The position numbers and the translations under genes were made by a program. Shown one piece after another: positions 56,190-64,000 of a stretch of DNA of 64,000 bases (positions within the stretch are counted from its first letter, which is position 1; the number at the start of each line of letters is the position of its first letter). This stretch comes from Stellaceae bacterium (GTDB lineage: Bacteria; Pseudomonadota; Alphaproteobacteria; ATCC43930; CGMCC-115725): contig DASZOZ010000135.1 in assembly GCA_035550515.1 (NCBI GenBank), positions 9,355 to 73,354 on the forward strand, read 5' to 3'. The notes beneath the pieces were generated by a model. The model saw only the letters and a list, made by a program, of their open reading frames with translations. It was not told where the DNA came from and made no database searches.

Positions 56190-56537
56190 ATGGAGCCGGC
56201 TTTCTTGCTGAGACTCTTCCTCGCTTTTGCCGGCGTCACGTGCTGGCTCGGCGCGGCCCATGCGCAAACGGCGCAGAGCGGGGGTCCGATCATCCAAGGG
56301 AGCCCCGATGTCGTGGTCGGCGGCGCCACCGCGGCGCGCCGAGGCGACATGACGAAAAACGGCGCGCCCGTCATGCAAGGTTCACCCGACGTCTTCATCA
56401 ACGGCAAGCCGGCGGCAACCTCGGGCAACCAGACGGCTTGCGGCGGCGCGGTCATCGGCGGCTCGTCGAACGTGTTCGTCAACGGCAAGCCGCTCGCCCG
56501 CACCGGCGACGACACGCAAGGCTGCGCCCGCCCGTAG
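56190..56537 (+). CDS. Secreted PAAR-like repeat protein
   Basis: Signal peptide (LLRLFLAFAGVTCWLGAAHA-Q) followed by three PAAR-like units: QGSPDVVVGGATAARRGD, QGSPDVFINGKPAATSGN, GGSSNVFVNGKPLARTGD. Confidence 0.6.
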   Translation: MEPAFLLRLFLAFAGVTCWLGAAHAQTAQSGGPIIQGSPDVVVGGATAARRGDMTKNGAPVMQGSPDVFINGKPAATSGNQTACGGAVIGGSSNVFVNGKPLARTGDDTQGCARP

Positions 56538-59737: not shown

Positions 59738-61057
59738 GTGAAGCTTGCGACGGTCGTTGCGCTGATCGTGAGCCTGCTGACGGTCTCGGCCCTTGCCGAT
59801 GGCGGCGATACCGCGAAAACCGCCGGCGATCTCGTCAAGAAGGGCCAATACGGCCAGGCCCAGCTCCTGTACCAGCGACTGATCGATGCCGCCGGCCGGG
59901 ATGCGGACCGGGGGCCGGTTCTGATTGCACGGGCCGACGCCTATTTCGCCGCCGGCGAATACGGCAAAGCCCAAGCCGCCTTGGCCGCCGCTCGCGCGTT
60001 GCCGCTCGGCGCGGAATTGACAAAACGCGCCGACGTGCTTTCCGACAAGATCGCCGACAAGCTCTCCTGGCAGCGTTTCGAAGCCTCGGCGACGATGAGC
60101 CTGGTGCACGATACGCATGTCCGCCACCGCGTGCGGGTCGTCTCCAGCGCCAATGGCACCGAGATCATCGAGATTTGCGACGACGAACCGAGCTTTGACG
60201 ATTTCGACGACGGCCCGAGCGTCATCACCAGCGAAAATTGCTATTACGAGGAGGTCACCGGCGACAGCAAGGCGTCGACGCAAAATATCAACATCGCCGA
60301 CTGGCAATTCCAAACCGCGAGCAAGGTCGAGCATCAGTTTCCGCTCGACAGCCGCGGCAGCTACTGGCGAACCGTCGCGGAGCTGACGCAAAGCTGGCAG
60401 GTTATCGCCGCCGACCAGGACAACCGGGTGATCCGGGCACGGACCGGCCCCAGCTGGTTCGAGCCCGATTGGCAGGCCCGCTTCGACCTTAATCTCGGCT
60501 ACCTGACCGGCCGGCAAAACCACGTGACAAACCTGCAATACCTCGCGCCGATGGCTGCCTGGGAATGGCGGCCCATGCCGAACCTGAGGCTGAACTCGAA
60601 TTATCAATACGAGTCGCGCCGCGCGTTCCCGAGCCAGCAGAACGGCCACGCGAACCTAGTCGATACGCAATTGCGCTGGGACATGACACCCGTCGACACG
60701 GTCGTCGGCCGCACCCTGCTGCGCGAGCAGGTCGCGCAGTTCGCCTACAATTCCTATCGCAGTGAGGAACTGCGCGCGGGATATCGCCGCGGGTTCAAGT
60801 GGTGGTTTGGGCTCGGCGGCGGCTTCGCCGAGGCGGAATTGCGGGCGCGCTTCTCCCAGTTCTATGGCGCGGCGCCGAGCGATAGCGGCCTCACCCGCCG
60901 GGATGTCATCCCGACCGGGCTGCTCGTCCTCGGGCAGGAATTCGGCAAGGCCTGGACGGTAAAAATTTCGTGCTCCTACAATGAGGTCGATTCCTCGGTG
61001 GTCCGTTATAACCGCGACGATTTCCAGTACTACCTGGCCGTGACGCGCAAGTTTTGA
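59738..61057 (+). CDS. Outer-membrane beta-barrel protein with an N-terminal TPR-like region (Slam/DUF560-like)
   Basis: Signal peptide MKLATVVALIVSLLTVSALA, a helical Ala-rich ~100 aa, an acidic linker, then alternating beta-strand-like sequence ending in the aromatic terminus YYLAVTRKF. Family assignment is tentative. Confidence 0.5.
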   Translation: MKLATVVALIVSLLTVSALADGGDTAKTAGDLVKKGQYGQAQLLYQRLIDAAGRDADRGPVLIARADAYFAAGEYGKAQAALAAARALPLGAELTKRADVLSDKIADKLSWQRFEASATMSLVHDTHVRHRVRVVSSANGTEIIEICDDEPSFDDFDDGPSVITSENCYYEEVTGDSKASTQNINIADWQFQTASKVEHQFPLDSRGSYWRTVAELTQSWQVIAADQDNRVIRARTGPSWFEPDWQARFDLNLGYLTGRQNHVTNLQYLAPMAAWEWRPMPNLRLNSNYQYESRRAFPSQQNGHANLVDTQLRWDMTPVDTVVGRTLLREQVAQFAYNSYRSEELRAGYRRGFKWWFGLGGGFAEAELRARFSQFYGAAPSDSGLTRRDVIPTGLLVLGQEFGKAWTVKISCSYNEVDSSVVRYNRDDFQYYLAVTRKF

Positions 61058-61132
61058 GCGCCGGCGACGCTTGGCGGACCGATGCCATTGCACCGCGGCG
61101 CGGTTGGGCCTATATCAGCGGCCCGGTCGTGG

Positions 61133-61209
61133 CGGAGTGTAGCTCAGCCTGGTAGAGCACTGCTTTCGGGAGGCAGGGGCCGGAGGTTCAAATCCTCTCA
61201 CTCCGACCA
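61133..61209 (+). tRNA. tRNA-Pro (anticodon CGG), CCA encoded
   Basis: Folded by hand: acceptor CGGAGTG/CACTCCG, D arm GCTC-AGCCTGGTA-GAGC, anticodon arm CTGCT-TTCGGGA-GGCAG, T arm GGAGG-TTCAAAT-CCTCT, discriminator A plus CCA. 77 nt. Confidence 0.9.
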
Positions 61210-61230
61210 TTTCACCCATGGCCAAACGGC

Positions 61231-61264
61231 AAACGCCCCCGCGGTTCCGGGGGCGTTTGCGTTT
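61231..61264 (+). terminator. Rho-independent terminator after tRNA-Pro
   Basis: The stem aaacgccccc (61231..61240) pairs with gggggcgttt (61249..61258). It is followed by gcgttt. Confidence 0.6.
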
Positions 61265-61321
61265 CCAGGACGAGATAGTGCCCTCTCCCGCAATGCGGGA
61301 GAGGGCGCCTTGCGGACGGCG

Positions 61322-62137
61322 CTATTCCCAGAACGCCATCACGATCTTGTTGTCGGCATCGAGGATCAGGTTGATGCGGTTGGGGTTGTGCACCTGCCCC
61401 TTGACCCCGTGCGTCGGACCGATCGGCCGGAAATCGGGCGGGAGGTCGCCGCCGTAGATAATCCCGGGGCCGGCCTGGCCTTGGCCCTTATCGACAAATT
61501 TCTTGCCGACGCATTCCTTGCAGTCGTTGGTCTTGATCTGCGCCTGCGTGCTGCCGTTCATGCCTTTCAACTCGAGCGCGTTGCCGAAGGCGCGGATGCG
61601 CACCCCCTTGAACGGATGGCCCGCTTCGAGGGTGAAGTCCGCGGCGATCGGCTGGAAGCCCTCGGCCTTTTGCGATTGCTCCGGGCTGGTGGCGATGAAT
61701 TGCAGATCGAGGACGTCATCGGCCGGCTTGCCGTAGAAGAACGGGATGAGCTGCGGGTTGCTCCATCCCGCGGAGCTGACCAGCCCCGTGACGCGAACGA
61801 TGTCGACCTTCGGCTCGAGCGTCGCATGCAGGATCTCGATGCCGGTCACGTAGAGGACCGGCACGTCGAGCGGCCGGTTGCCCCCGGACGGGCCGGCGGC
61901 ATTGTCGTCCTGGCCCGCCTGTTGATAACCGAGCGATCCGCCGCCGCCCGCTGGCGCCGCCGACTGCTGCTGCGCGTAGGCAGTGCCGGTAAAGCTCATG
62001 CCCCCGGCGCCGCCGGCGCCGCCGGAGCCGAACAGGGAAGCGGGGCTGCCGCCGGCCTGTGCAAAGGCACCGCTCGACAAGCCCATCACCAGCGCCAGCA
62101 CACCCACCATGCGCAGTTTGGAATAATTCATGGTCAT
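61322..62137 (-). CDS. Secreted hypothetical protein with a Gly-rich N-terminal linker, last gene of the putative RiPP operon
   Basis: Signal peptide MTMNYSKLRMVGVLALVMGLSSGAFA-Q, a low-complexity Gly/Ala/Gln region, then a ~190-aa globular part. It lies 49 nt downstream of the rSAM gene on the same strand. A 12-bp-stem hairpin (61280..61306) follows the stop. Confidence 0.55.
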   Translation of the reverse strand: MTMNYSKLRMVGVLALVMGLSSGAFAQAGGSPASLFGSGGAGGAGGMSFTGTAYAQQQSAAPAGGGGSLGYQQAGQDDNAAGPSGGNRPLDVPVLYVTGIEILHATLEPKVDIVRVTGLVSSAGWSNPQLIPFFYGKPADDVLDLQFIATSPEQSQKAEGFQPIAADFTLEAGHPFKGVRIRAFGNALELKGMNGSTQAQIKTNDCKECVGKKFVDKGQGQAGPGIIYGGDLPPDFRPIGPTHGVKGQVHNPNRINLILDADNKIVMAFWE

Positions 62138-62186
62138 CCCCATTCTTGAAGTGAATGTCCGTTTCCCGCAGCCGACGCCGTCTCCG

Positions 62187-63344
62187 TCATATCGCCGCCA
62201 TCGTCCGGGCTTCGGCGGCATCGGCCGCCCGTTCCAAGCGGTCGAGCACGAGGTCGGTCGCGCGCATCTTGGTCATCCGGCAATAGGTCGTTTCGGCGGT
62301 CGCGAAGCTGCCGTTCTCGAACAGCTTGTTGACCGGCTCGCCGCCGCCGCAGACGCTGAAATACTCGCAGCTCTCCCGGCATTGCGCGACGCCGGCGTCG
62401 ATGTCGGCCTGCATGCGCTTGAGCAAGGGCCGCTCGGCGAGATCGACCAGCCTGTCGCGGTTGATGTTGCCGAGCACGAAATCGTCATAGACGGCGCTCT
62501 TCAGCCCCAGCAATTCGGGTGAGAACGTGGCGATATTGCCGGTCCAATCCATGCTGGTGATCGCGAACGGCGTCGTCAGTTGGTTGGCGAAGCCGGCTTC
62601 GCGCGGACGGAAAATATTGCGCTGTGCATCGTCGATCTCGCGAATAAACCGGATCCGCTCGGGATGCGCCGCCGACAGGCGCCAGAACTCGCTGAGAAAC
62701 CGGTAATAGGCCTCCTCGATCCCGGCTTGGGCGAAGCTTTCCGAGCGATGCTCGCCCTCGCTCTCCTCGACGTTGAAGCAGACGTGGTCGATGCCCTCGG
62801 CGAGGTAGAAATCGAGCATCTCGTGCGGCGCGGCCAGGCTTTCGGCGGTCAGCACCGAGATCACGTGAAACGGCACGCCGTGCGCCCTCAGCCGGCGGAT
62901 GCCGGCGACGGCCTTGTCGAACGTGCCCCGCCCCGAGCGGGTCACCCGGTTGCGGTCATGCAAATGCGCCGGGCCGTCGATGCTGACCCCGACCGCAACC
63001 CCGGCCTCGGCGATAAACGCGCACCAGGCGTCATCGACCAAGGTGCCGTTGGTCTGGAACGAATGCCTGACCGGAAGCCCGGCCGGGCGCAGTTCCTCGA
63101 TCATCGCGAAGACATCGCGGTAGAACGCGATCGGCAGCACCATCGGCTCGCCGGCGTGCCAGACGACGCTCAGCTCCTCCGCGCACCAGCCCGAGGCGAA
63201 CACCTGGCTGAACAGGTTGACGAGCGTCTCGCGCGCGACGACCGCCTTGTTGGTGCGGTCGGGCAGATAGCAGTAGCGGCAATCGATGTTGCAGAACGGC
63301 GTCGGCTGGACGATCAGCAACTGGATCCGGGGCATGTCTTGCAC
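62187..63344 (-). CDS. Radical SAM/SPASM peptide maturase (GrrM/OscB-like, related to anaerobic sulfatase maturases)
   Basis: The rSAM cluster CNIDCRYC (CX3CX2C) sits at residues ~18-25. The C-terminal auxiliary-cluster Cys motif is CRESCEYFSVCGGG...TTYC. It lies 35 nt downstream of a repeat-rich precursor ORF. The start is GTG 63344 or ATG 63335. Confidence 0.85.
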   Translation of the reverse strand: MQDMPRIQLLIVQPTPFCNIDCRYCYLPDRTNKAVVARETLVNLFSQVFASGWCAEELSVVWHAGEPMVLPIAFYRDVFAMIEELRPAGLPVRHSFQTNGTLVDDAWCAFIAEAGVAVGVSIDGPAHLHDRNRVTRSGRGTFDKAVAGIRRLRAHGVPFHVISVLTAESLAAPHEMLDFYLAEGIDHVCFNVEESEGEHRSESFAQAGIEEAYYRFLSEFWRLSAAHPERIRFIREIDDAQRNIFRPREAGFANQLTTPFAITSMDWTGNIATFSPELLGLKSAVYDDFVLGNINRDRLVDLAERPLLKRMQADIDAGVAQCRESCEYFSVCGGGEPVNKLFENGSFATAETTYCRMTKMRATDLVLDRLERAADAAEARTMAAI

Positions 63345-63379
63345 CGCAGAGCCGCCCGTCGTCCGCCGCCGTGGCCGCG

Positions 63380-63709
63380 TTACCAGTTACGCCACCAGTT
63401 GTTCCAGTTCCGCCAGTTGTGCCAGTTGTTCCAGTTGGGCCAGCCCCAGCCGTAGCCCCAATTGCCCCAGGCCAGCCGGCCGGCGGATTTGGCAGCCTCG
63501 GTCTTGAGCTGGTCGAGCGCGCTGACCGCGTCGCGGACCGCGGCGAGCCGCTCCGAAATCTTCGCCTTCTCGGCCGCCGAAGGCTGATCTCCGGCCGGCG
63601 GCTCGTTGGCCGCCGCGGGAGAAGCTGCGCCAAGCGCCAACGATACCCCCACGGCTCCGGCGGGGGCCAATTGGGTCAGGATGGTCTGGTATTTCAGCCG
63701 CAGCGACAA
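63380..63709 (-). CDS. RiPP precursor peptide: signal peptide + helical leader + Trp/Asn-periodic core (GrrA/OscA-like)
   Basis: It ends ...GRLAWGNWGYGWGWPNWNNWHNWRNWNNWWRNW-stop. The best start is TTG 63709, 5 nt after AAGGAGG, which gives MSLRLKYQTILTQLAPAGAVGVSLALGAASPAAA-NE (Sec-type signal). In-frame ATGs at 63724 and 63754 lack an SD. Confidence 0.75.
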   Translation of the reverse strand: MSLRLKYQTILTQLAPAGAVGVSLALGAASPAAANEPPAGDQPSAAEKAKISERLAAVRDAVSALDQLKTEAAKSAGRLAWGNWGYGWGWPNWNNWHNWRNWNNWWRNW

Positions 63710-63842
63710 TGTTTCCTCCTTCATCGGCGACCGGTGGATCGATTGCCCCGGCATGGCGCCGGGACGATATGGCTAAGGAGCGTGCCCGTCCGAACGCCGG
63801 GCGTTGGTGATACGTTGCGGAAGGACCAACGGTTTCACGCGC

Positions 63843-63871
63843 TCTATAGTCCGGGGAAAAACCTGCGTCAA
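63843..63871 (-). promoter_or_regulatory. Putative sigma70 promoter of the precursor-rSAM operon
   Basis: On the minus strand: TTGACG (63871..63866), 17 nt, TATAGA (63848..63843). This is about 125 nt upstream of the precursor start. Confidence 0.4.
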
Positions 63872-64000
63872 TTTGGCTGCTGCCGTCCGGCCGGCGCCGG
63901 CGGCTTCGCCCAGGGCGGCGCCAGCGCCGCGATCCGGGCGTAGACGGGGCAGGTCGGGTCGTGCGCGCCGTCGAGATAGCCGAGGCTCATCAAAAACTCG
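63868..64000 (-). CDS. 3' end of an unidentified gene entering from beyond the window
   Basis: My translation gives ...EFLMSLGYLDGAHDPTCPVYARIAALAPPWAKPPAPAGRQQPN-TGA (stop at 63868..63870). Only 43 codons are visible and the function is unknown. Confidence 0.3.
   Translation of the reverse strand, partial: EFLMSLGYLDGAHDPTCPVYARIAALAPPWAKPPAPAGRQQPN

Follow-up and report, generated by a model that had tools for sequence, protein, structure and literature searches.

A 64,000-nucleotide stretch of DNA from a Stellaceae bacterium (assembly GCA_035550515.1, contig DASZOZ010000135.1), referred to below as the window, carries on its minus strand a short open reading frame (ORF) whose C terminus is rich in tryptophan and asparagine. 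A gene for a radical S-adenosylmethionine (SAM) enzyme of the GrrM/OscB family and a gene for a predicted secreted protein follow it on the same strand (Table 1). Together, the three genes probably form, in this alphaproteobacterium, a cassette for a triceptide of the GrrA/GrrM (OscA/OscB) type. By analogy with OscB, the Trp/Asn-rich tail is most likely the core peptide that the adjacent enzyme staples into Trp-to-Asn rings.

Table 1. Features of the cassette and of its surroundings, numbered from the first nucleotide of the window
Feature	Position	Strand	Details
Precursor gene	63380..63709	minus	TTG start, 109 aa; coordinates include the stop codon
Longest form of the precursor ORF	63380..63754	minus	124 aa
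Signal-peptide-like N terminus	63608..63709	minus	MSLRLKYQT-ILTQLAPAGAVGVSLALGAA-SPAAA; residues 1–34; predicted cleavage before NEPP
Leader region	63473..63607	minus	Residues 35–79; helix motif (K)VSERLAAVRDAVS; junction GRLA before the core
Core	63383..63472	minus	30 C-terminal residues with 7 W-x-N; translation AWGNWGYGWGWPNWNNWHNWRNWNNWWRNW
9-nt periodic DNA	63395..63443		CCAGTTNNN on the plus strand, equal to TGG-NNN-AAC coding
Radical SAM maturase, GrrM/OscB family	62187..63335	minus	382 aa, TIGR04261
Third cassette gene, secreted protein	61322..62131	minus	269 aa
tRNA-Pro(CGG)	61133..61209		Follows the third gene
439-aa ORF	59738..61057	plus	Between tRNA-Pro(CGG) and ispB

A Trp/Asn-Rich Core Ends a Short Precursor

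The precursor is likely to start at TTG 63707..63709, because an AGGAGG at 63715..63720 lies 5 nt 5′ of this codon and because most homologues and cluster representatives use the same MSLR start position. Retranslation of its last 30 residues reproduced the composition given in the initial annotation, with 11 Trp (residues 2, 5, 9, 11, 14, 17, 20, 23, 26, 27, and 30) and 9 Asn (4, 13, 15, 16, 19, 22, 24, 25, and 29). The seven W-x-N triplets listed there (WGN, WPN, WNN, WHN, WRN, WNN, and WRN) matched the translation, Trp did recur at every third residue from 11 to 26, and the plus-strand DNA quoted for the core was exactly that of the window. Five of the units abut directly (WPN-WNN-WHN-WRN-WNN), and the C terminus then reads W-WRN-W. 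Elsewhere in the 64-kb window, stop-free stretches of 30 aa in any of the six frames contained at most 5 Trp, and Trp made up 0.9% of the residues in its long open segments. When the 30 residues were shuffled with their composition fixed, W-x-N occurred 3.19 times on average versus the 7 observed (P = 0.003), and the period-3 run of six Trp had a P of 0.01. The W/N pattern of the core far exceeds chance.

The DNA encoding the abutting units is itself periodic, and Tandem Repeats Finder reported a period of 9, 5.4 copies, and 80% matches. Such 9-nt units had been read as a sign of expansion by slippage or duplication. TGG is the sole Trp codon, and TGG plus AAY fix 6 of every 9 bases, so that the periodicity is a by-product of coding (W-x-N)n. 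The middle codons of the TGG-NNN-AAC units differ (CCC, AAC, CAC, CGG, and AAC), and AAC is used for Asn in 35 of 43 cases in five neighboring genes. At fixed positions, orthologues encode Asn by either of its synonymous codons (145 AAC and 52 AAT), indicating that selection acts on the protein. Recent slippage was rejected on the basis of the TGG plus AAY coding, the differing middle codons, and the synonymous Asn codons. The suggestion that copy number might vary between strains was borne out in part: the W-x-N/D count ranged from 4 to 8 among orthologues (6 in 76, 5 in 20, 7 in 20, 4 in 3, and 8 in 1), whereas most of the length variation, with core lengths of 26, 29, and 32, fell in a Gly/aromatic linker.

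The Adjacent Enzyme Is of the GrrM/OscB Type

The enzyme gene lies 35–45 nt downstream of the precursor on the same strand. Its product scored 411 bits against the NCBIfam model TIGR04261 (cut-off, 310; E = 4e-123; profile positions 1–363 of 363) and matched, with 100% identity, a protein of a Stellaceae metagenome-assembled genome (MAG) for which NCBI already uses the name GrrM/OscB. Identity to the annotated GrrMs of Nostoc and Phaeobacter was 41–43%. Against every other maturase model tested, the enzyme remained under the cut-off (bits/cut-off: AmcB, 310/425; AnSME, 171/349; YhhB, 130/445; FxsB, 98/370; XyeB, 78/450), and this included the daropeptide models (DarE, 99.7/650; DarW, 127.9/650; DynA, 160.9/450). 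Its relatives in the PDB were AnSME (4k36-39; E = 2e-21) and the triceptide synthase ChlB (9gm3; E = 1.6e-19). OscB (IPR026357) has been described as joining residue i to residue i+2 through bonds from Trp-C7 to Asn/Asp-Cβ and from Phe-C4 to Asn-Cβ, which gives the three-residue cyclophanes by which triceptides are defined (reviewed in PMC11002830).

The three cysteines of the CX3CX2C radical SAM motif (C15/C19/C22) were invariant in all 120 homologues examined, and so were C319, C323, C329, and C352. The latter four have the family's pattern for a C-terminal auxiliary Fe-S domain (SPASM/twitch). They align with the auxiliary cluster II (Aux II) ligands of an AnSME and with the corresponding four cysteines of the GrrMs annotated in Phaeobacter, Nostoc, Streptomyces, and Bacillus. 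Across these four groups and Stellaceae (window and L030–L034), the GrrM-type proteins retain just four C-terminal Cys and lack the four Aux I cysteines, although that of Nostoc has two Cys nearby. Judged by these cysteines, GrrM enzymes may bind a single auxiliary cluster despite their “SPASM” name. A single auxiliary cluster has also been proposed for WprB (PMC11851443).

The W/N Register Is Conserved

A search at E ≤ 0.01 gave 347 precursor homologues in which the pattern is kept. All of them are without a name, and they derive from MAGs of Stellaceae and other Alphaproteobacteria and from soil metagenomes. Their cores follow WGNWG-(Gly/aromatic linker)-WPNWNNWHNWxNWxNW[F/W]RNW. The register was counted in 121 close sequences with positions numbered from the C terminus. 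Trp at −1, −8, −11, −14, and −17 and Asn at −2, −6, −9, and −15 each occurred in at least 115 of them; at position −12, 106 had N and 10 had D. Variation was seen at the middle positions (−7, G/N/R; −10, R/N/P/H; −3, R/H), and position −4 was F in 82 and W in 38. Thus, the orthologue alignment that the initial annotation had proposed as a check returned a near-invariant W/N register with a variable middle residue; the loss of register that would have refuted the reading was not seen.

An exhaustive profile search, with clusters at 50% identity, extended the family to 353 representatives at E ≤ 1e-3 (97 at 1e-10), mostly from soil metagenomes, whose cores are either abutting or Gly-spaced. Because W-x-N, N-W adjacency, and W-x-x-W cannot be told apart in abutting (W-x-N)n arrays, diverse and Gly-spaced cores were compared, with the relations centered on each core Trp and with 101 cluster representatives as the diverse set. 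The frequency of N/D at W+2 was 0.67 in close homologues, 0.81 in diverse representatives, and 0.78 in Gly-spaced cores. In the same order, N at W−1 went from 0.72 to 0.48 and 0.29, and W at W+3 from 0.63 to 0.45 and 0.28. Since N-W adjacency and W-x-x-W decay in Gly-spaced cores, the family-wide constraint is W(i)–N/D(i+2), as the Ω1-X2-X3 crosslink motif of triceptides (defined in PMC11499958) predicts. The TIGR04261 neighbor, the conserved register, and the W(i)–N/D(i+2) relation of Gly-spaced relatives all point to W and N as the linked positions of that motif, which is the assignment that had been suggested from the window.

The Precursor Is a Divergent GrrA Relative

With the enzyme as reference, 29 genome loci were recovered, and wherever these included sequence upstream of the enzyme gene, a precursor lay immediately before it. 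At three loci (L024:2964-3341, L025:3005-3448, and L027:3168-3497), a second precursor occurs in tandem upstream of the enzyme. One precursor of these tandem loci has abutting W-x-N and the other is Gly-spaced with GGWRN/GGWHN units, for example WRNGGWRNGGWRNGG. The Gly-spaced paralogues fit the cyanobacterial GrrA model better than the abutting ones do. The cut-off of TIGR04260 (GrrA/OscA1) is passed by the L024 (44.9 bits) and L025 (47.2) tandem precursors and by the L018 precursor (31.6). P0368 (21.0) and P0370 (26.7) remain below it, and other non-cyanobacterial representatives are also under the cut-off or have no match. The window precursor aligns through residues 25–107 with profile positions 16–98 at a score under the cut-off, which explains the “hypothetical protein” labels; it is a divergent GrrA relative outside the curated rule.

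Between the N-terminal segment and the core, R53, L54, A55, L78, and A79 were invariant in the precursor alignment, and an R-L-x-x-I/V-R-x-A-V-S motif was present in 124 of 150 cluster representatives. The AlphaFold2 (AF2) model of the precursor, with an overall predicted local distance difference test (pLDDT) score of 55, shows helices at residues 2–24 and 44–74, of which helix 44–74 has a pLDDT of about 60; the model is only weakly informative. Because the enzyme has no N-terminal recognition element of the kind (RRE) that binds the precursors of peptides that are made by the ribosome and modified after translation (RiPPs) and starts directly with the radical SAM motif, the leader helix motif is the best candidate for the element that the enzyme recognizes.

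The N Terminus Resembles a Sec-Type Signal

Residues 1–34 of the precursor have a layout compatible with a Sec-type signal peptide. A basic start, a hydrophobic stretch, and a small-x-small (A-x-A) site were conserved in all 121 close sequences, and an uncharged or hydrophobic run of at least 14 residues was found in 114 of 124 diverse representatives. The Kyte–Doolittle (KD) value of this N terminus, KD(10), was 1.98, versus 2.69 and 2.88 for two clear neighboring signal peptides; the family medians were 2.15 for precursors versus 2.55 for the third-gene family. Such moderate hydrophobicity would be compatible with post-translational export, leaving time for cytoplasmic modification.

Two representatives (P0364 and P0372) continue beyond the W/N core with an extra transmembrane segment and then a tail rich in Arg/Lys. 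The two tails share a ...TL..DKG.VR.IRR... motif, and the two variants would be membrane-anchored forms, in which the transmembrane segment and the basic tail would place the core outside the cytoplasm.

A Third Gene Completes the Cassette

The third gene lies directly downstream of the enzyme gene in 27 of 28 related loci, with a mean identity of 66%, and is also found in L035–L037. Its product carries its own clear signal peptide, followed by a Gly/Ala/Gln-rich low-complexity linker, and a conserved domain of about 185 aa. Residues 204–207 in this domain are a near-invariant C-x-x-C (NDCKECVGKKF). Among 763 homologues, none is named. The AF2 model was poor, with a pLDDT of 46. Assignment of its C terminus to peptidase inhibitor family I78 had no Pfam support even at an E of 10.

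The neighborhood beyond the window edge was taken from two close relatives (P0260 and P0276). In these, one flank of the cassette consists of nuoLMN-birA-coaX-RNase J-glyoxalase-DUF1467-tag and the other of ispB-methyltransferase-sppA-glyQS; no transporter or protease occurs in this cassette neighborhood, which is one of housekeeping genes. The 439-aa ORF of the window has a signal peptide, weak tetratricopeptide repeat (TPR) matches, and a C terminus like that of outer membrane proteins (OMPs) (...YYLAVTRKF). Its guanine-plus-cytosine content is 0.60–0.65 versus 0.68–0.73 nearby. Related genomes (L037) lack it at the corresponding site, so that it was probably inserted beside the tRNA gene, and this TPR/OMP-like ORF was ruled out as a cassette member by its absence from related loci. 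A 115-aa PAAR-motif protein (PF05488, 79 bits) with a hydrophobic N terminus is encoded at 56190..56537 on the plus strand, between an sppA-like gene and glyQ.

Between the precursor and the enzyme, a short GGCGGACGACGGG-like stretch at 63336..63379 is partly conserved at the same place in L001–L026. No attenuator hairpin was found between the two genes (z = −0.17), their intergenic alignment gave no clear element, and a promoter/terminator scan of 61000..64000 found none.

Comparison with Known Systems

OscA/OscB triceptides were reportedly studied by Nguyen et al. (Nat Chem 2020) and Purushothaman et al. (ACS Chem Biol 2024). The comparison with OscA/OscB, the same system as GrrA/GrrM, was made through the family models TIGR04260 and TIGR04261 and through papers that cite these studies. 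The Stellaceae cassette agrees with it in an enzyme above the TIGR04261 cut-off with a precursor directly upstream, in a core of repeated W-x-N/D, in a leader R-L-x-x-I-R-x-A-V-S helix motif that the TIGR04260 profile aligns, and in sister loci whose Gly-spaced paralogues, with GGWRN units, score above the GrrA cut-off. Unlike OscA/OscB, the precursor is under the TIGR04260 cut-off, the W-x-N units abut without Gly spacers, the host is a soil alphaproteobacterium and not a cyanobacterium, and the cassette has a third, secreted protein and a housekeeping neighborhood. The accessory sets of other grrM loci are different from the Stellaceae cassette. Nostoc (L030:3593-4441) and Streptomyces (L032:1562-2350) share an unnamed protein of about 270 aa with a Y[IV]APTE..[IV]HDGSTL motif and no Pfam match, and the Nostoc locus also has a PhyH-type dioxygenase.

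A grrM locus on a Phaeobacter plasmid (NZ_CP010716), compared by its annotation, is likewise alphaproteobacterial. It encodes a 114-aa precursor with a signal-like N terminus, an ARLETIRQSV helix, and the tail WLNSWSNWNNWSNWYKPWHNFSNYSWGNW, next to a secreted protein of about 220 aa. Unlike the Stellaceae cassette, it has the order secreted protein, precursor, enzyme, it is plasmid-borne, and its enzyme is 43% identical to that of the window. The 220-aa neighbor matched the third-gene product only weakly (BLASTP E, 8e-5; hhalign probability, 36%).

XyeB/XncB, ChlB, YhhB, AmcB, and FxsB resemble the window enzyme in having an AnSME-like radical SAM architecture and in following the Omega1-X2-X3 logic, and ChlB (9gm3) is a detectable PDB relative of the enzyme. 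These enzymes use different aromatic or X3 residues (PMC11002830), and the window enzyme is under the model cut-offs of AmcB, YhhB, FxsB, and XyeB. DarE and DynA, the enzymes of darobactin and dynobactin, are related radical SAM enzymes that act on Trp-containing cores, and a common origin of daropeptide maturases with the enzymes that form three-residue cyclophanes (3-CyFEs) has been proposed (PMC12912966). Daropeptides, however, need Omega1-X2-Omega3, and the i+2 residue of the Stellaceae core is Asn, not an aromatic residue. Bufferins resemble the cassette in the Sec-type signal of the precursor (an apparent one here), in a conserved gene set of small size, and in the lack of a dedicated transporter (PMC12452194). 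They differ in using a multinuclear nonheme iron oxidase (MNIO) and not a radical SAM enzyme, in modifying Cys and not Trp/Asn, and in having a known copper-binding function; the comparison is an analogy of logic only. Sec-type signals are rare in RiPP precursors and have been shown experimentally only for bufferins (PMC12452194).

A Model for Core Stapling and Its Alternatives

In the proposed pathway, the 109-aa precursor would be made in the cytoplasm, where the radical SAM enzyme would recognize its leader, probably via the ERLAAVRDAVS helix. By analogy with OscB, a 5′-deoxyadenosyl radical would take the Cβ-H of each Asn, and the resulting Asn-Cβ radical would join the indole of the Trp that lies two residues upstream (in OscB, at C7). 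Each W-x-N would thereby yield one three-residue cyclophane (−2 Da), for up to seven rings (−14 Da); both the crosslinks and the ring number are projected from the family membership of the enzyme. Five directly abutting rings would create a rigid aromatic ladder at the extreme C terminus. The Sec-type signal would carry the modified protein over the inner membrane, and a cut after AAA, that is, after A34, would leave a 75-aa product. The secreted third-gene product may act on or with the exported precursor, as a putative partner in the periplasm.

A fuller version of this pathway is offered tentatively. In it, GrrM chemistry would build a ladder of five to seven abutting Trp-Asn cyclophanes on a Sec-exported envelope protein of about 75 aa that works with the third-gene product, and the signal peptide, moderately hydrophobic and conserved in sequence, would also serve for recognition by the enzyme or to delay export. 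The product, in Stellaceae and many soil bacteria, would then not be a small leader-cleaved antibiotic.

Several observations weigh against the stapled and exported protein. The precursor scored 19.7 bits against TIGR04260 (cut-off, 31), with an E of 9.4e-4. The hydrophobic stretch of its N terminus is just moderate and is unusually conserved in sequence (P-x-G-x-x-G-x-S), and this segment could be an enzyme-recognition element instead of, or besides, a signal. The precursors beside annotated grrM in Nostoc (68 aa) and Bacillus (67 aa) have no signal-like N terminus, so that export is not family-wide. The third-gene product has no Pfam or NCBIfam match and no recognizable fold or family. Finally, steric limits may leave some abutting W-x-N unmodified.

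This last point leads to the alternative that the chemistry is partial or different: a subset of the motifs might be cyclized, for instance alternate ones if rings clash, the bond might go to another indole carbon, or the terminal W-F/W-R-N-W segment might form a W-x-R or F-x-N link and not W-x-N. Regiochemistry does vary in relatives (XncB, Trp-C6; OscB, Trp-C7; WprB, Trp-C5 to Arg-Cγ; PMC11002830 and PMC11851443), the enzyme is only 41–43% identical to the Nostoc and Phaeobacter GrrMs, and F-R-N is the commoner terminal unit, as the counts at position −4 show. Cyclization of alternate motifs, however, would lead one to expect uneven conservation, and every W and N of the array is about equally conserved. 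Moreover, the 2024 OscB paper, going by its title as cited in PMC11851443, reports a uniform cyclophane topology for diverse Gly-rich precursors. We regard partial or different chemistry as possible rather than probable.

A second alternative is a classical leader-cleaved RiPP, in which the N-terminal segment would be a cytoplasmic leader for the enzyme and an unlinked protease and transporter would release and export small triceptides. Cleavage immediately ahead of the first cyclophane motif is said to occur in all characterized triceptides (PMC12912966). The N-terminal segment also shows stronger sequence conservation than is usual for a signal peptide (80 of 124 representatives have a P-x-G-x-x-G-like motif), and its moderate hydrophobicity and its absence from the Nostoc and Bacillus precursors fit a leader as well. 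This alternative nevertheless appears unlikely to us, given that the conserved neighborhood holds no protease or transporter, that all of the close homologues keep the full signal-peptide layout with its A-x-A site, that an exported core is required by the variants carrying a transmembrane segment and a basic tail at the C terminus, and that the co-conserved third gene encodes a secreted protein.

That the tail is merely an unmodified low-complexity sequence or a DNA-repeat artifact, with the enzyme acting on another substrate, is very improbable: the 9-nt tandem periodicity and the lack of a curated family match above cut-off would suit it, but the conservation of the ORF in 347 homologues, whose codons at fixed W/N positions vary synonymously, the enzyme linkage at every locus with upstream sequence, the W(i)–N/D(i+2) relation over the 101 diverse representatives, and a TIGR04260 match that is significant though under the cut-off all speak against it.

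Significance

The chemistry and the enzyme family of the stapling system are already known, and the cassette adds an unannotated member to the triceptides rather than a new type of system. With it, the GrrA/GrrM triceptide class comes to include a large clade, so far unannotated, of 353 representatives, mostly from soil metagenomes, whose precursors score under the curated cut-off and are filed as hypothetical proteins. With five to seven directly abutting W-x-N and no Gly spacers, the core is an extreme substrate with which the limits of the enzyme could be explored. The signal-like N terminus, the neighborhood of housekeeping genes without a transporter or protease, and the co-conserved secreted partner point toward a small stapled protein that is secreted and serves a physiological role, as opposed to a classical antibiotic cluster. 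If the Sec-exported ladder is true, it would be the first radical SAM RiPP family routed through Sec and would represent a housekeeping use of cyclophane stapling.

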